64,000 nt of DNA, taken from the IMG/VR virus record IMGVR_UViG_3300047445_000406, positions 13,896-77,895 of that record. One strand, 5' to 3'. Shown here one piece after another: positions 1,792-58,819 of this stretch; position 1 is the stretch's first letter, and the number at the start of each line of letters is the position of its first letter. Both the position numbers and the translations under genes were made by a program. The notes under the pieces are model-generated. The model ran no database searches and was not told the origin of the DNA. It saw nothing but the letters and a program-made list of their open reading frames with translations. This DNA is from a virus.

Positions 1792-1961
1792 TTCCCAAAC
1801 CAGTAGAAGGGCAGGAAGCTCATGGATCCTACTGCTTCCGCCCTGATCTGGAACCGGAATGGCTGATCCGAATCACCTATGGTGGCACACCTATGTGGGT
1901 ATCGGCCAATGCCTTCGGTATCCCGCCAGAGGTCAAGGCCATGGCCCTCTTACTCAAATAA
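1743..1961 (+). CDS. Small hypothetical protein, C-terminal-motif family member 2
   Basis: RBS AAGGAG; ends WVSANAFGIPPEVKAMALLLK. Confidence 0.7.
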   Translation: MSNMSKRIYYFHDKQLIPKPVEGQEAHGSYCFRPDLEPEWLIRITYGGTPMWVSANAFGIPPEVKAMALLLK

Positions 1962-3119: not shown

Positions 3120-4364
3120 ATGGAACAATTCACCGGCTGGCAGTACATGCTGATCGATCTGGCCAACCATTTTGGTCATGACAAGCTGCTCTTCAGTGAG
3201 CGCATCAAGTGGGCCGAGGACAACCTCACCCAGTTGGAACAACTCGCTGACCAAGCGGAGAACAAACCGCTGTACCACAAGGCAGTGCAGGCCATACGCA
3301 AGGTACAGGCTGGTGAGCCCACCGGCCACATGGTCGGTTTCGATGCCTGCTGCTCCGGCATTCAGGTCATGAGTGCGCTCACCGGCTGTATTGCAGGTGC
3401 CACCAACACCGGGCTGGTGGATCCGAATGTGCGGGCCGATGCCTATGGCCAGCTCACCTCGGTCATGCAAAACCTGCTGGGTTCTGGCTTCGGTGTCTCC
3501 CGCGGCGATGCCAAGCAGGCACTGATGACTTCGTTCTACGGCTCGAAACAGGAGCCGATCAACATCTTCGGTGCCGATACTCCGGAACTGTCGGCCTTCT
3601 ATCAGGCCGCAGCAACGATCGCACCGGGTGCATGGGAACTGCTGCAGGATCTCTTGGCTTCATGGCAGCCGTATGCACTGGAGCACCGCTGGAAGCTGCC
3701 AGATGGTTTCGATGCCCGCGTCAAGGTGATGGAGAAACTGGACTCCCGCATCGAAGTCGATGAACTGGACCACGCCACCTTTACCTACGAGTTCTATGAG
3801 AACAAGGGCACCAAGACTGGCCTGTCCAATGTCGCCAACGTGGTGCACAGCGTGGATGCCTACGTGCTGCGCTGCATCCACCGTCGCTGCAACTATGACC
3901 GTGAGATGGTAGAACAGGCTCACAAGCTGATTTCTTACACCTTGGGCCAGCGGGGCATGCTGCGCTGTGGCCACACCGGTAGCACGGGGGAACACTCCAA
4001 GGTGGACTACTACGTGGGGCAGATGGATCGCTCTGGCATGGTTGATGTGGTGATCCTGCCCCATCTCACTGAATCCAGTATCCGGACGGTGCCTACGCTG
4101 TACCTACGTCAGCTGGAAGCCATTTGCCTTACCATGCTGGCTCACAATCCCTTCAACGTAGTCACTATCCACGATGAGTTCAAGTGTGGTCCCAACCACA
4201 TGAACCACCTGCGCCAGCACTACATCAACATCTTCAGTGAACTGGCCGAGAGCCGTCTGCTGGACGATATCCTGTCGCAGCTGCATGGCGTACCGGGCAC
4301 CTTCCACAAGCTGTCCAACACCCTGCCACAACTGATCAAAGGATCCAACTATGCTCTCTCCTGA
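3120..4364 (+). CDS. N4-like RNA polymerase II subunit 2 (gp16-like, catalytic)
   Basis: Motif A FDACCSGIQ, motif B RGDAKQALMTSFYG, NVVHSVDA and motif C TIHDEF. Confidence 0.92.
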   Translation: MEQFTGWQYMLIDLANHFGHDKLLFSERIKWAEDNLTQLEQLADQAENKPLYHKAVQAIRKVQAGEPTGHMVGFDACCSGIQVMSALTGCIAGATNTGLVDPNVRADAYGQLTSVMQNLLGSGFGVSRGDAKQALMTSFYGSKQEPINIFGADTPELSAFYQAAATIAPGAWELLQDLLASWQPYALEHRWKLPDGFDARVKVMEKLDSRIEVDELDHATFTYEFYENKGTKTGLSNVANVVHSVDAYVLRCIHRRCNYDREMVEQAHKLISYTLGQRGMLRCGHTGSTGEHSKVDYYVGQMDRSGMVDVVILPHLTESSIRTVPTLYLRQLEAICLTMLAHNPFNVVTIHDEFKCGPNHMNHLRQHYINIFSELAESRLLDDILSQLHGVPGTFHKLSNTLPQLIKGSNYALS

Positions 4365-26216: not shown

Positions 26217-26854
26217 GCTTGGAAGACCTCCCTGCACAGTTTGGTTTTGGCGACACGCTTGGCAAAGCCTTCAGCGTCCCCCTGCTTCTTGGTTTGGCGG
26301 CCGATGTTGACCATGTCGCTGATGGCATCGATGTTGCCGAAGTCCGCCAGGCGGTTGCCGCCGTGCTTCCACCAGAACCAGCAAGCCGATTCAGCCGCCC
26401 CTTCCGGGGTGGCCAGGTAATCACCGATGCCCTCCAGTGGGCGGTCCACCGCATCGGCAAAGGCAGCCTGGTTATCCCGCCCGGTAAGCTGAATCCAGCC
26501 GGCACCGCGGTGCAGCCAGCCATCATCGGTACCCTGGCCGCGGTTGCCCATGCGGTCGCCATACACATAGTTGGCCAGCTTTTGCGGCTGCCGTTCGTAC
26601 TGGCGGGCGATCTCTATGGAGGGGAAGCGGAAAGGCCAGACTTGCAGCAGGCGCTCGGCCCGGTAGTTCATGCCTTCGCGGAAGGCGGTCAGGTCATCGG
26701 ACTCCACCAGCAGCTGGCCCATGAAACAAGCCAGACGGGTAGGGGTGTCGATGCCATACAGGTCCAGGTAGCGGTTCAGGATGGTTGCGTAAGACGCAGC
26801 CTTGTTGCCAACCAGAGGAGCAATCCTGCTTAAGGCTTCAGGAGTGACGTTCAA
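26213..26854 (-). CDS. Endolysin, glycoside hydrolase family 19
   Basis: RLACFMGQLLVES, ANYVYGDRMGN, DGWxHRGAGWIQLTGRDN and SACWFW. Confidence 0.9.
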   Translation of the reverse strand: MNVTPEALSRIAPLVGNKAASYATILNRYLDLYGIDTPTRLACFMGQLLVESDDLTAFREGMNYRAERLLQVWPFRFPSIEIARQYERQPQKLANYVYGDRMGNRGQGTDDGWLHRGAGWIQLTGRDNQAAFADAVDRPLEGIGDYLATPEGAAESACWFWWKHGGNRLADFGNIDAISDMVNIGRQTKKQGDAEGFAKRVAKTKLCREVFQA

Positions 26855-47531: not shown

Positions 47532-47990
47532 ATGAAACTCCAACTCGAACAAGCAGAAATCGAAAAGGCCGTGCAGGAATACGTGGCCAACCAGGGCATC
47601 AAGGTCGAGGGTAAAACCCTGACCGTGAAGTTCTCCATGACCCGTGGTGAACAAGGCCTGATCGCCGACCTGACCATCGATGAAGTGAAGGCAGATATCA
47701 AGCCTGTCACCCGTGCACCGCGTGCCGGTACGGTGGGTGCCGCCATCGCCAACCAGTCGGCCGGTCAGTCGGGCAAACAGGAAGCCAAACCAGCCCCGAC
47801 TACCGCCAAGGAAGCGATCGAGCAAGCCACGGCGGCAGCAGCTGAAGCGGCGGCGGCCCGTACCGAGCAAACTACCGCGGTGGAAACCGAGGAAGCCTCC
47901 CAGGCTGCAGCGGAAGAGACTGCCGGCGAAGCCAAGGAAGAAACCGTATCTGCTCCGGCTGCGGCGCCTGCCAAATCCCTGTTCGGCTAA
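47532..47990 (+). CDS. Hypothetical protein with an A/E-rich disordered tail
   Basis: RBS AAGGA; ends APAKSLFG. Confidence 0.75.
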   Translation: MKLQLEQAEIEKAVQEYVANQGIKVEGKTLTVKFSMTRGEQGLIADLTIDEVKADIKPVTRAPRAGTVGAAIANQSAGQSGKQEAKPAPTTAKEAIEQATAAAAEAAAARTEQTTAVETEEASQAAAEETAGEAKEETVSAPAAAPAKSLFG

Positions 47991-48005: not shown

Positions 48006-48200
48006 ATGAAAATCCGAGCTATCCTTAAGGGAATCGGCATTGGTGTGCTGGCCATACTCGCCATTGTCGTGGCGATCGTAGGCTTTGTGCTGTCGGCCGT
48101 CATGGGAATTGCAGTATCGCTGGCCGCCATTGGTGCACCGTTCTGCCTGGCCATTGTCATGGCAGTGCACGACTGGGTAACCAGGAAGAAAGAGAAGTAA
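48006..48200 (+). CDS. Small membrane protein
   Basis: Two hydrophobic helices with basic termini. Confidence 0.65.
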   Translation: MKIRAILKGIGIGVLAILAIVVAIVGFVLSAVMGIAVSLAAIGAPFCLAIVMAVHDWVTRKKEK

Positions 48201-48207
48201 CCGTAAA

Positions 48208-48642
48208 GCCCTTGCCGCGGTAAAGAGCAGGGGCAACAAGAAAGCCAACTCCACGCCCAAACATCAGGTAGCAAGCTGAGGGAGCAATCCCATATATGCG
48301 CTACGGGGAGGGTGGACCAGCGGTAGCCGCGGTCATAGGAGTTGGCCTCCTTGTTTATCGAATTGCGGGTGTACTTCACCTGCTCCAGAAAGGTGGCCAC
48401 AATTACGGACTACCCAGCACCTGTGCTGCGCGTACACACCGTTGGAAACAAGCCTTTTGTGCCAGATGACAGGCCTAAACACATCGTCAGGTGAGAGACG
48501 CAAACACCTATATGACACAATAGAGTGTCGCCCCGGCAGAGACAACTGCCAGAGGATAACTTCAGAGCATCGAAACTCAAAACAAACACGTCTCGCTGGT
48601 CGAGTTGAGAGAGGGGGTGGATCGAAAGACCCACTCCCTTTT
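48208..48642 (+). ncRNA. Putative large structured ncRNA of unknown class
   Basis: No credible ORF; many nested stems, GNRA loops, a possible pseudoknot and a terminal terminator hairpin. Confidence 0.55.
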
Positions 48643-48643
48643 C

Positions 48644-51600
48644 TTATTTGAACGGCGACATCAGCGCATTCACCGTGCCCAGTTCATCCAGGGTGGTCAC
48701 GTACTTCAGTGCCCCGGTGCTGAACGGATTGCCCAGACGGTGCACGGCAGCTGAGTCCATCAAGGTCGGTACCGCATCGAAGAAGTGCGATCCAATCAGC
48801 AGCATCAGGGCACGGGCCGGGTTCTCCCGGTACAGGTGCATGATGATCTTCTGGATGCGCAGGTAGTACTTCGAGAAGTACACAAAGCCCATGTCGTTGG
48901 CGTATTGCAGCAGACGGTGCGATGGCACGTCGTAGTTGATGAACGCATCCGACACCAGCTGGATTGCCTGCTCAGTGCCCATCGGGTTGCGTGCACGGTT
49001 GGTCATGTGCTGGTACAGCGTGTATCGGGCCACGAAGTCCGACAGCTGGGTACCATACGACAGCGCCTTGTACAGCGGCGTGTCATGCGCAATGACCAGT
49101 GTCTTGGCCGTGTCCACCACATGTGGATTCAGCTTGTCAGTGAACTCGTCCACCTTGCGGGTGAAGCGTCCCTTGAAGCTGTACATGTCATCGTCCGCCG
49201 CCACATCCTCCACGATGGTTGGCATCAAGCCCGCATCGATCAGCTGGCGTACCGGATTACGCGCCAGGGCATCCTCCAAGATCACCTTCTGGCGTTCCAG
49301 CTCACGCTGGTTGCCGGCCGGCAGATACTTGGTGGACAGCTGCAGATTGATCCGTTCCAGTGCCTCACTGTCCTTACGGTACGCCAGGGCGCCTTTCATG
49401 GCCACCCGGTGGTGGCGCAGGATGTCCGGCAACGGTACACCAAACCACAGCAGCTCGGTCATGTTCGAGCTGATATTCCCCATCAGGGTGACCCCTGACT
49501 TCACCACCATCGTGTCCTTGGCTTCACGCACGAAGGCCTGCCAAATATCCTCCCCCTGACGCAGTCGCAGATTCGCCTTGTCCCCAAAGAAGAACGTCGC
49601 CATTTCCGCCAGCACCCGTGCCACGGCACTGTGCTGCTGCACATCCTTGTCCAGCACATCCGCGATCGACAGCTTGCGGTAACCGAAGTTGATGTCGAGC
49701 AGATCGACCCGCACCATCATGTTGTTGCCACCCCAGATATCCCGCACCGATTGCTTGGTGCTCTCCGGCAGCAGGCGCCAGATCTCACGCAGCTCCGGAT
49801 CCGTGCTGTTGGCCCCCACCCGCAGATAGCTGTGGTGACGGGTAGCATATTCCGCATCGTACTGGTCCTTCAAGGCCTGCACCGCCGTGGCATTCTGCTC
49901 CTTGGTCATTTCCTTGTCGAAGATATTGCCCGCCATTTTGCCCAGCAGTTGCTCGAAACGGTTGTCCCGTTCCAGCAAGGTGTCCTTGGTGTTCTCGTTC
50001 ATCATGTAGCGGTAATTCACTACATCACCCTGGGCATTGAGTACCGGTGCCAGGAAGGCACCGCCCACCTTGCGCGGATCGAAGTTCGGATCGGCATTGA
50101 ACATGTCGCGCACCCGCGGCACATTGCCGGCATCGATGGTCTGCATCGTGGTGACATTGGCTAGACCCTGGCTGGTCAGCAGATTGGTACCGCCACTGAT
50201 CACCTGGCTGCCCTTGGCACGGGTACCGGTGTAGGAAAACACCCCGGTCAGGTAGGACTGCAAGCCACCATCTTGCAACTTATACAGACGCTTGGCCGAC
50301 TTGTCCGGGTCCACCTTGTCAGCATGCAGCGCAGCACCCTCCGAGTAACCCTGGTTGACCAACTGCTCGCCGGTGGCCTGGTCGGCGGCCACGATCGAGA
50401 TGTAGGGGTTGTACGCCTCCGGCACATAGCCCTTCATGTACAGCGGCTCGCCGGCCACAAACAGGCGGTCCTTGGATTGCTGCTGCAGTTGCTTATGCAG
50501 CTTCAGGATCATCTCGATCCCGTTGCCATCGGTGCGGGCATTCTCGGTGGCCAGCACGGCCTGGGCATTGGCCAGATGGTTCTGGTCCACATACGCCAGG
50601 GCGTACAGCGACACCAGTTTGTCAATCACCGGTTCTGCCTTGGCCGCCATGGCTGGTGCAATGCGGCCGGCAAACTGGGTACCATACAGCAGTGAGATAT
50701 TCCCGGCATTGAACATCAGGTTGGCGCCGGCAACCCGGCCGGTGGCCTTGTAATAGCCCAGCAGCTTGGCGCCTTTCACGAAGTAATGGCCGAAGTTGGC
50801 AAAGCCAGTCAGCTGGCCTTCCAGACGGGCAATCTCCTTCTGCAGCATACCTGGGTTGGCGATCAGCTTGCCCAGTTCGTGCATGCCGTACTGCCCCACC
50901 AGCGAAGCCAGGTCAGTGCGCAGGAACACGGCGGAGATGGCCGCCTTGTCTTCCTTGGACAGGTAGTTGCCACCATCCTTGAAGCTCTCCAGTATGAACT
51001 TGGTGGTGTTGGCGATGATGTCCTTGCGCAGGCCTTCGATATGCTTGGAGGCGCGCAGCAGCTTGTGGAACAGCACATTGTCCGGCTTGCTACCGCGGAT
51101 CTCGTTGATGATGCCAGCCATCGGGCCATGGCGCTGACGGAAGTGCTCATCACGGATCTTGGCAATGCCTTCCATGATCAGGTCGGCCCTGTCACCGGCA
51201 ATCGCTGCGCCCACCGAACCAGCGGCCTTGATAAAGGCATTGGTATTGGTCTTGAAGAATGGCGACTTGAGGAAGTCCTCCAGTTTGCTGCGACCGCCTT
51301 CCGACAGATCGTGCAAGGTGTCTTCGATCAGTGCCATGGTGGTATTGCGTTGCTGGCCCAGTTTCATGCGTTTCTTGGCTTCGATCCCCACCAGCTGCGT
51401 CACCAGGGCTTCCAGCTTGGCATCCGCCTGCTGGCCCTCGAAGGTGTGGGTAAAGGTACGGCTCAGGAAAGCCAGCACCATGTCGTACACCGCGTGCAGC
51501 TTGTCGGCCAGGGTCAAGCCAGCCAACTGCTGCTTGGTCTTGACCTGGGTCGCAAAGTTCAGCAGGTTGGCCGTCTCCTCATGGGCCAGGCCCAGGGCAG

Positions 51601-54600
51601 CAAAGCGGGCCAGGTAGTCCGACTTGCCGTCGGCGCCGGCCTCCAGCTTGAACACGAAGTCATACAGAGCCTGCGGCATCTGGCCTTGCAGCCTGGTGGC
51701 TGCCTCCTGGTACAGCTTGGCCAGTTCCTCATACGCCAGGGTGGTATGGCCTTCCTTGTCTTCCAGTGCCGCCCGTACTGTGGCCTCGACCTGCTCCAGC
51801 ACGTAGGCTTCCTGCTCGCTGATGCGGAAACCGGCCGCCAGCGACTTGGAGGCGAACGGTGCCACCCCCGATTGCAGGGCATTGGCAAACACCTCGGCCG
51901 GCGTGCTGGCCTGGTTCTGCATCAGGGCTGCCTTGAAGGTGCCGAACGGACCATGCAACGTGTCAACAATACCGGTCAGTAATCCTTTCAGCTGTACCTG
52001 GAAGGCAGCCGATACCGGCGACACAGGATTGACCTGACCCAGGGCATCATAGATGTCCAGCGTGCTATAGGTGTTCAGGTTCGGCTGGTTCTTCTGGTGC
52101 AGCACCAGTTCGGCTTTCGACTTGGTTTGCGCGGCCTGGTAGAACAGGCCAGACACATTGGCCACCAGCACCGCCATGCCATTTTCCATCTGCTCCTGGG
52201 CTGTCTTGCTGGACCCCTTGAACAGCAGACCGGTCAGGGCTTCGATGAAGCGCTTCATGCCCGTCACCAGCTTGTTGCCGGTGGTGTTGCTCTGCATCGA
52301 GATCTGGTTCAGCACAGAACGCTGGAAGTCCAGGTTGGACATGCCCCAGCTGATGAACTCGTGCACATTCTCCAGTGCCGCCGTAAAGCCCTTCAGCTTG
52401 TTCTGTGTCACATGCGATTGCGCCAGAGCACGCAGCAACTCCAGTTCCTGCACCAGCTCATAGGCCGGACCAGTCTTGTCCTGCAAGGCTTGCTCCACCG
52501 TGGTGGCAATGGCGGCATGGGTCAGTTCATGCAGCATGGTTTCCGGCGTCAGGCCGGAATACTTGAAATCCGGCGACAACAGGTTAACCTGCTTACGATC
52601 GCCCTTGGCCACAAACCAGCCACGGGATTCTTCGGCGCCATTCGCCAGCACAGCAGAAGCCGGCGTGGCTGGGGTGATCAACTGGACCTGCACGTCTTTC
52701 GGCAAGGTCTTTTCGATCAAGTCCAGCAGGCGGTTGTTGAAACCGGCCATGCGGCCTTCCCCGTTGCTTAACGCCTGGCGCAGCGTCTTCACCGCCAGTT
52801 TGGCATCCATCACCGGATCCTGATTGAAAGCATCCACCAGGTAGGCATCGGAAATGACCGCAGGAGCCCCCAATTCGCCCCATGGCGACGTGAACGGACC
52901 TGGCAGGGGTGTTACCTCGGCCACCGGTCGAACGCTCGGCAGAGCGCTTGGATTCACGTCCAGTTCGGTATCCGGCTGGGTCTGGCTGTTCTTTACCCCG
53001 GAAGCCAGGGCAGACAGGATGGCCAGAGCCTGGTTGTCGGCCGACGACAGCGAGCTGTCCAATGCCCGGCGTGCTTTCTTGACCGCCTTGCGATCGGCTT
53101 CCGTCACCACGTAGTGACCACCTTGCAGGGCATACTGGTCGACCGCCCCCATCTTCTCCATGACCAGAAACTTCATGCTGTCAGCCCGGTACGCCAGATC
53201 ACGCATGGCCTTGGCCTGGATGTCGAGCACGGCCCCCGGCTTGGTATCCAGTTGGGCGGCGTACTTGGCCAGTACCTCCTGCAGCAGGGCTTGCGATTGT
53301 GGTGGCAGGGTGCCGGCTTCTTGCATGGCGGCCACCCCGCGGATGACACGGGTCAGGGTATCGGCCATCTGACTGGCTGGCGAGTAGCTCAGCATGGCCT
53401 GCCAGGTGGCCTGGTTCAGGTTGACGGCCGCTTCCTTGAAGTTGCCCAGACCGGTAGTGTGTGCGTCATGGTTGTTCAGCACTTCCGATTTCATCGCCGC
53501 CGTATGCGAGATGAAGGAATCGGTGGCGTGCACGCTCATCGGCGCCATGGCTACGCCGGGCGCCGTTTCGCTGCGTTCGTAGGCAGCTGTCTTCACCGAG
53601 GCAGGGCCATCCGGGAATGGCTGGCCAAACTTGATTTCACCGGAGTACTTACGGTCGGTGCTGATCTTGCGGGCCGACTTGGAAGCCAGCAAACCAGCGG
53701 ACAGTTCACCTGATTGCTGAGAGAAGGCGGTGTGCATCAGCGGCAGGATGTCCTGCACCTGGACACGCAGTTCGGCCTCCTGGGCATTGGTCAGGTCATG
53801 GATCGGATTGCCCTTGCCATCGACCGCAATGGCACCGGCCTTGACCAGTTCGGCGATCTTCTGTTCCCGTAGGCCAGTGTAGGCAGCGTGGTACAGGTCG
53901 AAAGCCAGCTGGGCCGACAAATTGAAGGTGCGGCGCTGTCGAATGAACACCTCGAAGTCTTGATCCATGGTTGCGCCGACGGCCTTGCCGATGGTGTCCG
54001 TGAACACTTGCTTCAGCCGGCCGATCTGGGCTGGCGTCAGCGGCGTCTTCATCATCTCTTCGATGGATGGATTACCCAGGTTGACACCCAGTGTCTTCAG
54101 GGAAGCCAGGAGCACTGCCTGATCCAGTTTGCCGGTGGCCACATCTTCCATCTTGCCGTACACCGATTCGATGAACTTGTCGGCCATGGATTCCACCGCA
54201 CTGCTCACCGAGGAACCGAAGACCATGGCGGTCAATGGCGTCTTGATGATGTTGCGGCCATCCTTGGTCACCTTGTCATCTTTCACCAGGTGACCGGTGA
54301 GCGTGTACAGGGCATTGGCCTGGCCGGCAGGGATCTGCAGATTGCGGAGGTTCTCCACCACATGGGCCGTGGTGGTTTCGTACAGGTCGGTATTGCCGTC
54401 CTCTGCGCGCCACAGGTTGTAGTTGCTGTGGTCGCTGCCCTCTTCGTAGAAGCCACCCTTGTTCAGCAGGGCGTACAGGTCTTCCACCGTTTCCGCCGCG
54501 CCCATCAGCAGGTGCGACAGCATCGGGCCATTGGTAACGCCATCGACCTCGCCCATCAGATGGGTGGTGAAAGTGTTCTTGCCTTCGTCCAGAGCATTCA

Positions 54601-57600
54601 GGTAATGGGCCAGTGCCACCAACGCATCCAGCGTGTGCATGGCTTCGCCACCTTTCTGTACGCCGGCCACCAACTGCTGTTGTTCCTCGGCGGAGATACC
54701 CCCCTCGGTCATGGCTTTGCGCAGTACGGCAACCGCCCGCTTGATCTCCGGCTGGTTGACGGTAGCAGTCAGCTGCTCCAGCGATTGCTCATTGCTCTGC
54801 TTGTCGGTCTTGATGCCCAGGCCTTCCGCTACCCGCAGCTTGAAGTTCTCCATCCCATCGCGGTCGGACATCTGCAGCTCGACTTCCCAGGTCGGACGGA
54901 ACAGCAGGCGGCGATGCAGCTTGGACGTTTGCGGGTTGATCATGTTGGTGCTGATCCCCACGCGCTGCTGTTTCCACACCGTGTGATCGAAGTACATGGC
55001 CTTCTCCAGCACATCCTGGTCCTGCAGCATGCCGAAGTATTCCATGGCCCGCTCGTATTCCCGGCGCAGGCCATCGTTCTTGGCTTCGATCGATTTCTGG
55101 TTGACCTCATGGGTCACGGTCGGATTGATGCTCTCGAAACCAGCAATGGCCAGGGCCATGTCTGGATGCAGCTGGCCAAACAGATGCCACATGTCCAGGC
55201 GCAGATGGTTCGGCTGGGCATTCTCGTGCTGCATGATGGCCTTCTCGCTGCTCGGCACCGTCTGGTCCGTGTTGCGGGTGGTCTGCTGGGTGAATGGGAT
55301 CTTGCGGAACGCCGGTTCCTTCAGGCCTTGCTCGGCACCGAACAGCTTGTCGAGCACGCCTTGCGAGCCCTTCATGGCTTCCAGGATCTGCTTGGTCTGG
55401 GCCTGTTCAGCCACCACGGCAATGAACTTGAATGTGGCATTCTCGTTCGTGCCACCCTTCGGCATGACGCTGGCCATGTCCTTGCCGGACAAGGTATTGC
55501 GCACCAGGATGCCCTGGTCCAGCAGCAGTTTCATGGCATGGGCACCAAGCGCACTCTCCAGCTGAGGTGCGAGGTTGCGGGGAGCATCAGGCCGGGCCGT
55601 CAGGCCCAAGGCCTGTGCGACACGCGAACCGAGTGCATTGATCACGACATTCTCACGGGTACCCACACCGCGCAGCAGATAGGCTGCCTCCTGCGATACC
55701 AGGGCGTCTTCATCTCGGCCCAGGATGGCATTGATCTCTTCGTCGGTATTGAACAGGGTGCGGTTGGCGTTTTCAGCCAGCCAGGAGAAAGCAGCGTAAG
55801 CGATCGCCGTCTGCGTATTGGCCGCCACCTTGCCGTCGGTACCGATCAGGAACTGGCTCATATCGCGGTAGCGATACAGCGGGTTGGCCACGGCCACGAA
55901 GTTCGTGGCGATATTGCCCACCCAGTCCGAAGCCAGGGAAGCAAAGGTCGACAGGGCCGTGTGCTGCTGCTCGGTGAGGGTCGGCTCCTTCAGGTATTGC
56001 AGGGCGGCCGAGACATCGGCTTTCAGCGAAGCCAGGAAACCAGGCGCCTGCACCAGCGGCCGAGTGGAACCGGTATCCTTGCCGGCCTTCTGGGTAAAGT
56101 GGGCCAGCAGCAGGTCACGCTGCTGATAGGGCTTGGCTTGTTCGGACTCTGGAGTGACTGCAGTGGGGATAACTTCGGACTTGTCCACAGTGTTATCCAC
56201 TGCTTTATCAGCCGTCGCTTCTGCTTGCACATCCGCCGCCAGCGGCGGCGTCTGTGGCGCACGCTCCGGCTGGGCTTGGTCTTCTACTGCAGCTTGCTTC
56301 TCTGCCTTGCGGGCTGCTGCCTTGGCCAGTGCTTCCTTAACCAGGGCATCTTGCCGGGCATGCTTCTCATCAGCTGCTGCCAACGAGTCTTTGGCCTTGG
56401 TTTCCTTGACTGGAACCTGCGGAGCAGACTCCCCTTCAGAGGCTTTAGACTCTGAACGTGGCAAGTCCTTAACCCTCTGACCAGTTAACTCTTTAGAAAC
56501 CTCCCCCTGCTTATTTTCTTGCGCAACTACCGGTGCCGGGGAGATGGATTGTACACCGGCGTCCGGGAAGCGCAAGGCTACGGCGTTGGTCATCTCGTCA
56601 CGGGCCGCTGCCAGTGCCTGGGCTTCGATCTGGATGTCGCGCACCAGGCGGCCGGAGTTCAGGGTCATGCCGTTCTGCCCTTGCTCCTTCAGTTTATTCA
56701 GCTCACGCTGGGAGTATTCCCGATCGGCTACTTGCCACTTGCCTCCCAGTTTCACGATCTGGGCGCCCAGCCCGTTCTGGGACAAGGCCTGTGCCGCGGC
56801 AGCTGCCTTGCCGGCATGATCGGCAGCAAAGTCGGACAGCATGCCCAGTTGGCGTTGCGCCAGGGGTGCACTGCCGGAGGCAATCGCGGTACCAATTCGC
56901 TGACGGTACTGGGTGATACCAATATTCTTCTTGGAGCCATGCAACACTTCCTGGCTCACCTTTTCCATGGTGGCCAGCTGGTTGTCGGCGACGCGGGCAG
57001 CACTGAAGGTGCGCAGGTAATCACGCTGGGCCGGGGTCAAAGCGTTGTCAGTATTGCCAGCCAGGGCATCGGCATCCTGTTTGGTCAGGGTGTCGACGTT
57101 ACGCATGGCCAGATTCAGGACACGCTCAGCGGCCGGTGCCGAGACTTCAGCATCCGCCGTATTGGCTTGTTCCACCGTTGCCTTGATTTCAGCAGGTGCC
57201 GGAGCCGGTTCCAGCTGGGTGGTCAACTCACCCAGCACACTATCCGACTCTTTCAAATAGCGGCTGACCTTGCTCAGCTCCGCATTCAATGCCGGGATCT
57301 CTTCCTTGCTGACGGACTTCAGCTGTTCTTTCAAGGAGTCAAAACGGTCTTCCAAGCCAGTGATGACATTCACTGCCTGGTCCAGGTTTTGCTGCTTCAC
57401 TTCAGGCGTGGTGTCTTCCTTCTGGTTCACCGCGAACAGGACACCCAGGCCGGTGGCCGGATCATAGCTGGTATGTGACGGGTCGAAATAGGGGGCTGGA
57501 TTGTTCTCAGCCACGGCTTGCTGGAAGTCGGCTGCCTGCTGTACTTGGTCAGCATGCTCAGCTGCATGTTCCGGTGTAGCTCGGCTGGCTTCAGCCACGG

Positions 57601-58819
57601 CACGACCACCACCCGACAATACGCCACCGGAGGAGGCACCGATCACACCACCCTTATAGATGTCCAGCAGGGAGGCTGGCTTGCCGGAAGCTTCTCCTTC
57701 CGCATAGGTCTGGAAGGTTTCCGTGGCGCCTTCACCAACCACACCCTGGGTCGCAGCGCGCAGAGAATTCTTGAAAGCGGTCTTGGTACTGTCCTTACCC
57801 AGGGCAGCACCGAGCGAGATATGGTCACCCAGGTGCTCGGCTACCGCCAAGGAAGCGGCCCACATGCCAATGCGCCCCATCTCATCCTTGGAGGGCAGCT
57901 GACCATCATGGTCCTTGGCGTATTGCTCAATACCCTGCTGGTAATAGTCGGCCGCATAGCCGGCATTCGACAGGGCCATGGCGGTCTTGCCCACGCCACC
58001 TAGCGCACCGACGAACAACTGCGGCACGTTCTCGGCCACGTATTCACCCACGGCTTGTGGATTGGTGACCACTGCTTCACCGGTGTTGGCCAGCAGATTG
58101 GCGATGCCGGACACAATGCCTTTAGCCGAATCCAGGTAAGCCCCTTTCCTACCGGCATCCCAACCCGCCGTGATCTTGTCCACCGAACTCTGGAAATCCT
58201 TGCCCAGTTCCTGGTCCAGCTTGTTCTTGGCGCCTTGGTGTTCGATTGAACTGATGTCGAAGGTGTCATTGATGGCACGCGACTTCAGGCGATCACCGGC
58301 TGCCTGGTTCAACAAGTGCAGCATGGTGGGGGCATCGGCTGCCGGAGCAGCACTCATGCCGGTCTTGGCGGCAGCGAAGGAAGGCTGGGCTACTGGTCGC
58401 TGCAGCAAAGCCATGTCCTCTGCCGACGCCTTACCAGTCAAGTAGCGGTTGAAGGCTTCCTGATCCTGTTGCGTGGCTTGGTTCTCGGCAGTAAGAGAAC
58501 GCAGAGTAGTAGGCAGGGAAGCGATGGCGCCCACCACCTGCCGGCTGGCACCGGAAACCGTGGAAGCAACCAGGTTGACTGCCCGGCCGACAGGTTCTTC
58601 TGGGTCAAAACCAAGCTGGTTGACCCAGGAGTTGCGGTTGCTGGCTTGGGAACTTGCAGGTGCTGGAGAGGTACTGGCTGCCAGAGACTGACGGAAGGCA
58701 TTCAGCTGCTGTTGCTTGTCGGCCGAGGCAGCCCGCACGGCGTTGATTTTGTCCACGCCCGCTGGACCCAGGCGGTCATTAAAGTAGGCGTTCAGGTCGA
58801 ATTCGGTATCGTCAGCCAT
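48644..58819 (-). CDS. Virion-encapsidated RNA polymerase (N4 gp50-like vRNAP)
   Basis: 3391 aa; motif A EVDGVTNG, motif B RNIIKTPLTAMVFG, motif C NHDA; no Cys seen on reading; synteny. Confidence 0.95.
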   Translation of the reverse strand: MADDTEFDLNAYFNDRLGPAGVDKINAVRAASADKQQQLNAFRQSLAASTSPAPASSQASNRNSWVNQLGFDPEEPVGRAVNLVASTVSGASRQVVGAIASLPTTLRSLTAENQATQQDQEAFNRYLTGKASAEDMALLQRPVAQPSFAAAKTGMSAAPAADAPTMLHLLNQAAGDRLKSRAINDTFDISSIEHQGAKNKLDQELGKDFQSSVDKITAGWDAGRKGAYLDSAKGIVSGIANLLANTGEAVVTNPQAVGEYVAENVPQLFVGALGGVGKTAMALSNAGYAADYYQQGIEQYAKDHDGQLPSKDEMGRIGMWAASLAVAEHLGDHISLGAALGKDSTKTAFKNSLRAATQGVVGEGATETFQTYAEGEASGKPASLLDIYKGGVIGASSGGVLSGGGRAVAEASRATPEHAAEHADQVQQAADFQQAVAENNPAPYFDPSHTSYDPATGLGVLFAVNQKEDTTPEVKQQNLDQAVNVITGLEDRFDSLKEQLKSVSKEEIPALNAELSKVSRYLKESDSVLGELTTQLEPAPAPAEIKATVEQANTADAEVSAPAAERVLNLAMRNVDTLTKQDADALAGNTDNALTPAQRDYLRTFSAARVADNQLATMEKVSQEVLHGSKKNIGITQYRQRIGTAIASGSAPLAQRQLGMLSDFAADHAGKAAAAAQALSQNGLGAQIVKLGGKWQVADREYSQRELNKLKEQGQNGMTLNSGRLVRDIQIEAQALAAARDEMTNAVALRFPDAGVQSISPAPVVAQENKQGEVSKELTGQRVKDLPRSESKASEGESAPQVPVKETKAKDSLAAADEKHARQDALVKEALAKAAARKAEKQAAVEDQAQPERAPQTPPLAADVQAEATADKAVDNTVDKSEVIPTAVTPESEQAKPYQQRDLLLAHFTQKAGKDTGSTRPLVQAPGFLASLKADVSAALQYLKEPTLTEQQHTALSTFASLASDWVGNIATNFVAVANPLYRYRDMSQFLIGTDGKVAANTQTAIAYAAFSWLAENANRTLFNTDEEINAILGRDEDALVSQEAAYLLRGVGTRENVVINALGSRVAQALGLTARPDAPRNLAPQLESALGAHAMKLLLDQGILVRNTLSGKDMASVMPKGGTNENATFKFIAVVAEQAQTKQILEAMKGSQGVLDKLFGAEQGLKEPAFRKIPFTQQTTRNTDQTVPSSEKAIMQHENAQPNHLRLDMWHLFGQLHPDMALAIAGFESINPTVTHEVNQKSIEAKNDGLRREYERAMEYFGMLQDQDVLEKAMYFDHTVWKQQRVGISTNMINPQTSKLHRRLLFRPTWEVELQMSDRDGMENFKLRVAEGLGIKTDKQSNEQSLEQLTATVNQPEIKRAVAVLRKAMTEGGISAEEQQQLVAGVQKGGEAMHTLDALVALAHYLNALDEGKNTFTTHLMGEVDGVTNGPMLSHLLMGAAETVEDLYALLNKGGFYEEGSDHSNYNLWRAEDGNTDLYETTTAHVVENLRNLQIPAGQANALYTLTGHLVKDDKVTKDGRNIIKTPLTAMVFGSSVSSAVESMADKFIESVYGKMEDVATGKLDQAVLLASLKTLGVNLGNPSIEEMMKTPLTPAQIGRLKQVFTDTIGKAVGATMDQDFEVFIRQRRTFNLSAQLAFDLYHAAYTGLREQKIAELVKAGAIAVDGKGNPIHDLTNAQEAELRVQVQDILPLMHTAFSQQSGELSAGLLASKSARKISTDRKYSGEIKFGQPFPDGPASVKTAAYERSETAPGVAMAPMSVHATDSFISHTAAMKSEVLNNHDAHTTGLGNFKEAAVNLNQATWQAMLSYSPASQMADTLTRVIRGVAAMQEAGTLPPQSQALLQEVLAKYAAQLDTKPGAVLDIQAKAMRDLAYRADSMKFLVMEKMGAVDQYALQGGHYVVTEADRKAVKKARRALDSSLSSADNQALAILSALASGVKNSQTQPDTELDVNPSALPSVRPVAEVTPLPGPFTSPWGELGAPAVISDAYLVDAFNQDPVMDAKLAVKTLRQALSNGEGRMAGFNNRLLDLIEKTLPKDVQVQLITPATPASAVLANGAEESRGWFVAKGDRKQVNLLSPDFKYSGLTPETMLHELTHAAIATTVEQALQDKTGPAYELVQELELLRALAQSHVTQNKLKGFTAALENVHEFISWGMSNLDFQRSVLNQISMQSNTTGNKLVTGMKRFIEALTGLLFKGSSKTAQEQMENGMAVLVANVSGLFYQAAQTKSKAELVLHQKNQPNLNTYSTLDIYDALGQVNPVSPVSAAFQVQLKGLLTGIVDTLHGPFGTFKAALMQNQASTPAEVFANALQSGVAPFASKSLAAGFRISEQEAYVLEQVEATVRAALEDKEGHTTLAYEELAKLYQEAATRLQGQMPQALYDFVFKLEAGADGKSDYLARFAALGLAHEETANLLNFATQVKTKQQLAGLTLADKLHAVYDMVLAFLSRTFTHTFEGQQADAKLEALVTQLVGIEAKKRMKLGQQRNTTMALIEDTLHDLSEGGRSKLEDFLKSPFFKTNTNAFIKAAGSVGAAIAGDRADLIMEGIAKIRDEHFRQRHGPMAGIINEIRGSKPDNVLFHKLLRASKHIEGLRKDIIANTTKFILESFKDGGNYLSKEDKAAISAVFLRTDLASLVGQYGMHELGKLIANPGMLQKEIARLEGQLTGFANFGHYFVKGAKLLGYYKATGRVAGANLMFNAGNISLLYGTQFAGRIAPAMAAKAEPVIDKLVSLYALAYVDQNHLANAQAVLATENARTDGNGIEMILKLHKQLQQQSKDRLFVAGEPLYMKGYVPEAYNPYISIVAADQATGEQLVNQGYSEGAALHADKVDPDKSAKRLYKLQDGGLQSYLTGVFSYTGTRAKGSQVISGGTNLLTSQGLANVTTMQTIDAGNVPRVRDMFNADPNFDPRKVGGAFLAPVLNAQGDVVNYRYMMNENTKDTLLERDNRFEQLLGKMAGNIFDKEMTKEQNATAVQALKDQYDAEYATRHHSYLRVGANSTDPELREIWRLLPESTKQSVRDIWGGNNMMVRVDLLDINFGYRKLSIADVLDKDVQQHSAVARVLAEMATFFFGDKANLRLRQGEDIWQAFVREAKDTMVVKSGVTLMGNISSNMTELLWFGVPLPDILRHHRVAMKGALAYRKDSEALERINLQLSTKYLPAGNQRELERQKVILEDALARNPVRQLIDAGLMPTIVEDVAADDDMYSFKGRFTRKVDEFTDKLNPHVVDTAKTLVIAHDTPLYKALSYGTQLSDFVARYTLYQHMTNRARNPMGTEQAIQLVSDAFINYDVPSHRLLQYANDMGFVYFSKYYLRIQKIIMHLYRENPARALMLLIGSHFFDAVPTLMDSAAVHRLGNPFSTGALKYVTTLDELGTVNALMSPFK

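Follow-up and report, generated by a model that had tools for sequence, protein, structure and literature searches.

A probably composite non-coding gap, with a candidate small RNA motif and an apparent tRNA-Arg remnant, before the virion RNA polymerase gene of an uncultivated N4-like phage

The gap before the vRNAP gene and its counterparts in relatives

The window, which is the whole stretch of 64,000 nucleotides analyzed here, derives from a 77,895-nt IMG/VR record of an uncultivated N4-like phage (IMGVR_UViG_3300047445_000406). The sequence has 57% GC. Positions 1-171 of the record (~171 nt) are repeated at 77725-77895 with one mismatch, which is consistent with a terminal overlap or a short direct terminal repeat and, thus, with a complete genome. 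In front of the gene for the virion RNA polymerase (vRNAP), the window contains a gene-free gap of 443 bases whose flanking genes are convergent and which ends in a plus-strand terminator. The initial annotation had correctly located it between the middle operon and vRNAP: the plus-strand ORF ends at 48200, and the minus-strand vRNAP ORF occupies 48644-58819. The last gene of the operon encodes a 64-aa hydrophobic membrane protein, positional homologs of which precede the gap in three relatives (L003, L002, and L007). Located 5' of it, on the same strand, are genes for SSB, a RuvC-like resolvase, and a 152-aa protein. The features of the locus are as follows:

48006-48200, plus strand: 64-aa hydrophobic membrane-protein ORF closing the rightward (middle) operon, from the ORF list and its translation
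48201-48643: gene-free gap, 443 bases
48208-48234, plus strand: hairpin H1, 8-bp stem (48208-15 with 48227-34) and 11-nt loop (CGCGGTAAAGA)
48235-48355, plus strand: Y domain, predicted three-way junction, from the fold z-score and RNAalifold on the window and L003
48235-40 with 48350-55: P2a, closing stem of the Y domain, AACAAG with CTTGTT
48244-52 with 48338-46: P2b, closing stem, GCCAACTCC with GGAGTTGGC
48254-48308: P3, long arm, with a GCAA loop in the window and GAAA in L003
48315-48334: P4 hairpin, GACC-A-GCGG, TAG loop, CCGCGGTC, with a bulged A
48365-48387, plus strand: apparent tRNA-Arg(UCU) remnant, a 7-bp acceptor-stem minihelix (GCGGGTG / CACCTGC) with a 5-nt loop and 3' TCCA
48388-48465, plus strand: tRNA trailer region, partly conserved with L003, carrying AAACAAGCC at 48446-54
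48466-48608, plus strand: variable 3' segment with small hairpins, including GAGACG at 48495-500 and CGTCTC at 48589-94
48609-48650, plus strand: predicted intrinsic terminator, a GC-rich 12+2 bp stem (48609-48642) with a GAAA loop, then TTTTCTTATTT
48644-58819, minus strand: vRNAP ORF, 3391 aa

The same gene order is found in Pseudomonas phage LUZ7 (SSB, gp46-like resolvase, small proteins, membrane protein, convergent vRNAP). Named phages are distant, sharing at most 43% amino acid identity with the vRNAP C-terminus. The 152-aa protein (47532-47990) and LUZ7 gp68 (L020:1320-1700) occupy an equivalent slot after the resolvase; both have Ala-rich tails ending in ...LFG(G) and are hardly alignable otherwise.

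The ORFs within the gap, 50 to 74 aa in length, can be attributed to chance. No reading frame is kept in its conserved part because the indels relative to L003 there are 1 or 2 nt long; as these are not multiples of 3, the region of H1 and the Y domain is non-coding. A small-protein reading was rejected, as a 57-aa ATG ORF at 48296 is frameshifted and shortened to 24 aa in L003. The initial annotation had called this the largest ORF-free gap; a crude ORF tiling, which has little reliability at 57% GC, suggested a single rival (26421-26850), and long open frames extend across it.

Relatives were sought via the vRNAP C-terminus. Locus searches of IMG/VR and metagenomes yielded five useful relatives and a search of prokaryote genomes yielded none, while a protein search for C-terminal fragments of vRNAP returned best matches that were only 57 to 60% identical. 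Few relatives had a syntenic junction, and four uncultivated ones were compared. Their gaps, in RNA sense and with vRNAP amino acid identity to the window, are as follows:

Window: H1 present, Y domain present, tRNA dead (stump only)
L003 (82%): 472-nt gap, H1 present, Y domain present, tRNA-Arg(tct) present
L002 (73%): gap of ~107 nt with a hairpin and tRNA-Arg(gcg) only, H1 absent, Y domain absent
L007 (58%): ~445-nt gap, H1 present, Y domain absent, orthologous tRNA-Arg(tct) present
L016 (54%): ~435-nt gap, H1 absent, Y domain present, no tRNA, two T-arm-like hairpins (apparent stumps) only

Judged from these sequences, the content of the gap differs module by module and appears to turn over fast among relatives. 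The gap had no blastn match in 50,697 phage records. Exact and degenerate motif scans of IMG/VR with the Y arms and H1 recovered the contig of L003 only, and a scan with the P4 motif recovered L003, L016, and four chance matches in coding DNA of unrelated GC-rich contigs.

Folding excess, hairpin H1, and the Y domain

Folding energies were compared with those of dinucleotide shuffles. The entire gap yielded z-scores of -3.85 on the plus strand and -3.45 on the minus strand, so that, as the initial annotation had expected, it folds better than shuffled controls. Tests of individual segments (200 shuffles each) gave z -4.39 for the Y domain at 48235-48355 (0/200 shuffles as good), z -0.60 for 48356-48470 (52/200, chance level), z -2.47 for 48471-48604 (4/200), and z -3.94 for the terminator (0/200). 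The folding excess is local and sits in the Y domain and the final terminator. The earlier description of the gap as almost fully paired therefore applies to the 5' third and the terminator and not elsewhere, the middle being at z -0.60. The gaps of the relatives are strongly structured as well, with z-scores of -4.9 for L003, -7.4 for L007, and -3.1 for L016.

A scan of the window, the gap, and the relatives with Rfam 15, which covers ribozymes, riboswitches, tmRNA, RNase P, 6S, Y RNA-like RNAs, GOLLD, ROOL, and group I/II introns, gave no family match at gathering score except the tRNAs of the relatives. At E ≤ 10, the gap and the relatives produced only noise (E of 0.66 to 9.9, far under gathering scores). 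These scans bear out the view of a non-coding, plus-strand structured RNA element outside the Rfam families. They also agree with the earlier exclusion of tmRNA, RNase P, and group I/II introns, none of which was found by Rfam; ARAGORN likewise found no tmRNA. A scan for promoter-like sites inside the gap revealed none, and a lone terminator was found at its end.

H1 is present in the window, L003, and L007, and its loop is nearly invariant. With its flanks, of which CGTAAA and AACAAG are conserved, it shows 95% nucleotide identity between the window and L003. In L007, the stem carries two double compensatory and two single (G-U) changes, and every pair is kept. H1 occurs once in the 77.9-kb genome. 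L007 has a second H1-like hairpin (1900-1925, minus strand; CCTTTGCCGCGATAGTGCAGAGG), similar to H1 of the window in stem and loop, ~50 nt 5' of its tRNA.

The Y domain is 86 to 91% identical at the nucleotide level between the window and L003, compared with 65 to 70% for the two upstream genes and 81 to 85% for the 3' end of the vRNAP gene. Positions 48202-48355 are thus the best conserved DNA of the neighborhood in this comparison. All 39 of 39 Y-domain pairs are kept between the two phages, with three compensatory changes and two changes from C-G to U-G. Partners that had been slid as a control were ~42% paired, versus 100% for the true partners. A covariation shuffle control gave 75/500, which is the best value attainable with two sequences only. 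The family of H1 and Y-domain elements has only three to four members, too few for valid covariation statistics. Within these limits, all varying pairs of H1 and the Y domain are retained via compensatory or G-U changes. The wobbles are G-U on the plus strand and A-C on the other, so the structure belongs to the plus-strand RNA, and the initial annotation was right to assign the strand by G-U pairs, which are valid on the plus strand only. It had also called for a test of covariation in homologs; compensatory changes occur in H1 and the Y domain, in these few sequences, and the 3' third is not conserved.

When L016 was folded alone, the same Y architecture was obtained. P2b is replaced by a closing helix of 8 bp, unrelated in sequence and complementary (TTGGTCGA with TCGATCAA), which encloses P4 and an arm of CCC/GGG and GTGC/GCAC. 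P4 itself is almost letter-identical, and a single C-to-T change creates a U-G pair. A covariance model built on the window and L003 found L016 at E 0.015 and gave no match in 17 other loci, LUZ7 included. MAFFT and the covariance model misalign the outer helices of L016, which was therefore aligned by hand. L007 has a plain 21-bp hairpin at the position of the Y domain, and the Y shape appears, from the sequences compared, not to be universal in the clade.

All stems quoted in the initial annotation occur in the sequence where it had placed them, but the comparison with relatives altered several of its pairings. The CGCCC/GGGTG helix is not kept in L003, and the comparative fold pairs C.CCC with the GGGG after GCTAC instead. 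For CTTGTTT/AAACAAG, the CTTGTT(T) strand pairs with the upstream AACAAG (48235-40) to form P2a in the window, L003, and L007, and AAACAAG further downstream would serve as an alternative partner at most. The proposed GAGACG/CGTCTC pseudoknot has no counterpart in L003; CGTCTC lies in a window-specific stretch, and in the MFE fold this pairing forms an ordinary nested stem.

Readings of the Y domain as hammerhead-like or tRNA-like were rejected by eye and with Rfam. A motif of the form (G)GCAACAAG / AAACAAGCC is present in two to three copies in the gaps of the window, L003, and L016, the sites in the window being 48235-48243 and 48446-48454. AACAAGAAA can be read as A-R-N triplets and may be a candidate protein (e.g., Hfq-type) binding site or merely an alternative partner of CTTGTT.

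The tRNA slot and the 3' part of the gap

In a global alignment, the gaps of the window and L003 are collinear apart from a clean 54-nt deletion in tRNA-Arg(tct). The deletion, with its junction between 48373 and 48374, takes the D, anticodon, and T arms of the tRNA. Both acceptor halves, the flanks, and the encoded CCA remain in register with the intact gene of L003, as befits a remnant created by internal deletion, and the 7 bp still pair. The 3' strand of the stump carries two substitutions that are both neutral to pairing (G-C to G-U and U-G to U-A). The orthologous tRNA of L007 has the same first 12 nt. No tRNA or tmRNA was found by ARAGORN in the window or the whole genome, nor was a match to Rfam RF00005. 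The initial annotation had seen no tRNA signature, which holds for the absence of a cloverleaf; it overlooked the stump, which is visible by comparison only. Compared with phage tRNA pseudogenes in general, the likeness consists of the retained acceptor halves in a slot that holds tRNA-Arg in three relatives, whereas the copy in the window is without D, anticodon, and T arms and accounts for only ~25 nt of the gap. We interpret the middle of the gap, on the strength of this alignment, as a decayed tRNA-Arg gene that is intact in relatives. The 54-nt deletion could also be an assembly error in the metagenomic record.

The tRNA-Arg genes in this slot (tct in L003 and L007, gcg in L002) are all in plus sense and scored 49 to 65 bits. 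The junction is thus a tRNA slot in the clade, and at least three relatives need to transcribe it on the plus strand. L016 contains two T-arm-like hairpins in the syntenic gap (3869-3929, minus strand), with stems around GGTTCGAGTCC and GGTTCGAATCC, at which neither ARAGORN nor Rfam found a complete tRNA. These are probably further tRNA stumps, and decay of tRNAs in this slot would therefore be recurrent. In L002 (5278-5310) and L007 (1872-1905), in both on the minus strand, the tRNA begins 6 to 7 nt past a hairpin that is GC-rich and has a 4-nt loop and a T5 run. This pre-tRNA hairpin may be a read-through terminator or a LUZ7-type hairpin promoter.

AGA and AGG make up 0 to 2.6% of the Arg codons in the vRNAP genes (window 48647-58819, minus strand, and the available parts from L002, L003, L007, and L016). 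Since these genes nearly lack both codons, the tRNA-Arg(UCU) of L003 and L007 is unexplained by the codon demand of this late gene, which hints at a use other than codon supply. The stump in the window, a microhelix of 7 bp, ends in an encoded UCCA and has a G3-U70 wobble, which goes back to a C-to-T change compared with L003. Microhelices with G3-U70 are substrates of alanyl-tRNA synthetase and represent the minimal accepted shape. By analogy, the stump might still be processed or charged, or its G3-U70 might be coincidental; this idea is more speculative than the trans-acting RNA discussed below.

Sequence conservation declines toward the 3' end of the gap. The trailer region shares 79% identity with L003 across aligned columns, with 26 gap columns, and the variable 3' segment shares 66% over 79 aligned columns, with 61 gap columns and ~95 nt that are specific to the window. 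Within the latter, the hairpin GACAC (48514-18) / GTGTC (48525-29) covaries with AGCAC/GTGCT of L003. The MFE fold and its z-score predict an intrinsic terminator at 48609-48642, where a GC-rich hairpin is followed by a U-run. The GAAA-loop terminator named in the initial annotation is thereby upheld, with its 12+2-bp stem, the subsequent TTTTCTTATTT, and z -3.94. It overlaps the vRNAP stop codon (48644-46, minus strand), and the gaps of L003 and L016 end in equivalent hairpin and T-run terminators. Owing to a mismatch in its stem, it escaped a consensus terminator scanner.

Explanations for the gap and their significance

The reading we favor, with slightly better than even confidence, is that the gap forms a composite non-coding tail of the middle operon on the plus strand. 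From 5' to 3', this tail would consist of the module of H1 and the Y domain (H1/Y), the dead tRNA-Arg(UCU), poorly conserved hairpins, and the intrinsic terminator. Read-through from the middle operon would give rise to a long 3' tail, which in the relatives would be cut by host RNases into mRNA, a stable H1/Y RNA, and the tRNA. RNase P would cut at the tRNA, and RNase III or E at the long stems. The terminator would halt middle transcripts ahead of antisense entry into the vRNAP gene. As part of the composite reading, and held about as firmly, the H1/Y module of ~150 nt is presumed from its substitution pattern to be under purifying selection as an RNA.

The module appears to be independent of the tRNA, because the window keeps the module without a tRNA and L002 keeps a tRNA without the module. 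Since both dissociate across the clade, H1/Y is unlikely to be a mere pre-tRNA leader. Possible roles are those of a small RNA that binds a protein, or of an element for stability or processing of the mRNA 3' end. Going further, H1/Y (48208-48355) could represent a new class of trans-acting phage small RNA that is released from the 3' end of the middle operon, binds a host or phage protein as decoy, anti-defense factor, or regulator, and outlives the tRNA owing to its independence. We regard this more specific proposal as tentative and, on balance, improbable.

An alternative that we consider unlikely, though a serious one for P4 alone and more probable than the other rivals, assigns P4 to the DNA rather than the RNA level. 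P4 would be a hairpin promoter of the N4/LUZ7 type, from which a phage RNA polymerase transcribes the now dead tRNA and the sequence downstream, and the remaining Y domain would be incidental or auxiliary. The early and middle promoters of LUZ7 are GC-rich hairpins with 3- to 4-nt loops and a G start 13 to 15 nt downstream (PMC9163698). P4 resembles them in being GC-rich, having a 3-nt loop, and having a G 13 nt past the loop center; it is nearly invariant in the window, L003, and L016, with this G at +13 in 3/3. It thus agrees, in geometry only, with a stem of at least 4 to 6 bp, a loop of 3 to 4 nt, and a G 13 to 15 nt downstream. P4 also lies ~40 nt upstream of the tRNA start, and the tRNA closely follows a GC-rich hairpin in L002 and L007 too. 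However, P4 differs from the known hairpin promoters in that it is single-copy, sits within covarying RNA helices, and contains a bulge and G-U pairs. No second P4-like hairpin was found in the 77.9-kb genome, so that the recurrence expected of such a promoter is absent. The bulged A interrupts the stem, the T-G pair of L016 is a mismatch in DNA, and covariation of the surrounding P2b and P3 is not required for a DNA hairpin promoter.

It is quite improbable that the gap is neutral debris, comprising a decaying tRNA islet and a terminator, with hairpins that arose by chance in a GC-rich spacer. The dead tRNA of the window, the tRNA-like T-arm stumps of L016, the rapid turnover of gap content among relatives, and the weak or missing folding excess of the middle and 3' sections would all suit such decay. 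They do not account for H1 and the Y domain, which outdo the neighboring protein genes in conservation and in whose helices all substitutions keep pairing, or for L016, which retains the architecture despite full sequence turnover of P2b.

The initial annotation had proposed that the whole ~430 nt are one multi-domain, pseudoknotted functional RNA and had named a ribozyme, a scaffold, a decoy/antitoxin, and a virion-associated RNA as options. With no internal promoter-like site and one end terminator, the gap could be transcribed as a single long RNA. The entire gap beats the shuffles at z -3.85, and the gaps of the relatives are strongly structured too. Yet the middle folds at chance level (z -0.6), which is explained by the tRNA stump and its trailer, and the 3' third is unconserved, the pseudoknot partner being absent from L003. 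The gap of L002 has shrunk to ~107 nt with just the tRNA, and gap content among relatives varies by module. With no Rfam ribozyme or large-RNA match at E up to 10, nothing indicates a ribozyme, and a 430-nt scaffold finds no support either. A single RNA of this kind is very unlikely, and the composite tail is preferred to it. The least probable reading makes the Y domain a riboswitch-like or attenuator-type cis-regulatory sensor that controls read-through into the tRNA: the Y-shaped fold of ~100 nt lies directly 5' of the tRNA, has a GNRA loop on one arm in the window (GCAA) and L003 (GAAA), and in the window faces a small hairpin, AGGAG/CTCCT followed by TGTTTAT, that competes with P2b, but this alternative hairpin is lost in L003 (3 bp left), no Rfam riboswitch family matches, and the module persists though its supposed target tRNA is deleted.

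The nearest precedents for the composite tail and its H1/Y module (LUZ7, T4, and GOLLD/ROOL) are best taken as functional analogies, not as homologs. In LUZ7, the sRNA1-3 region (intergenic orf69-orf70) gives rise to abundant late RNAs of <250 nt, one of them apparently processed, as detected by ONT-cappable-seq (PMC9163698). Like the gap of the window, it is an ORF-free stretch (~400 nt) that is found toward the end of the operon with SSB and resolvase, a short distance ahead of the convergent vRNAP gene. In contrast, blastn revealed no sequence similarity between them, and the LUZ7 gap has its own sigma-70-like promoter (by eye) and no tRNA or tRNA remnant. The two are not positional orthologs either: in LUZ7, the gap is located three genes 5' of the vRNAP junction and precedes the membrane-protein gene, whereas in the window it follows that gene. 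RNAC and RNAD of T4 are stable small RNAs of a tRNA cluster that are co-transcribed with the tRNAs, their function being unknown (PMC3014915). A structured RNA beside a tRNA is also what L003 displays; the likeness is one of arrangement. The T4 RNAs are demonstrated stable species, whereas H1/Y is predicted. GOLLD and ROOL are structured RNAs of phages and prophages, often beside tRNAs and possibly co-transcribed with them (PMC5737381). They comprise 580 to 800 nt with many junctions and pseudoknots, whereas H1/Y has ~150 nt, one junction, and no Rfam match.

One candidate for a new small RNA motif thus emerges from the gap, with sequences from only three to four phages. The finding is real but modest: a candidate RNA motif in a thinly sampled clade, together with a tRNA-loss event. 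The locus also serves as a warning that a large intergenic region which seems fully paired may be pieced together from unrelated parts, and the tRNA stump documents a route of phage tRNA gene loss. To our knowledge, small RNAs of N4-like phages have been seen experimentally in LUZ7 alone, and we know of no function for those. If H1/Y is a real stable RNA, it would constitute a new small RNA family for N4-like phages. The clade would then offer a natural experiment, with sister phages that carry both the RNA module and the tRNA, only one of the two, or none.
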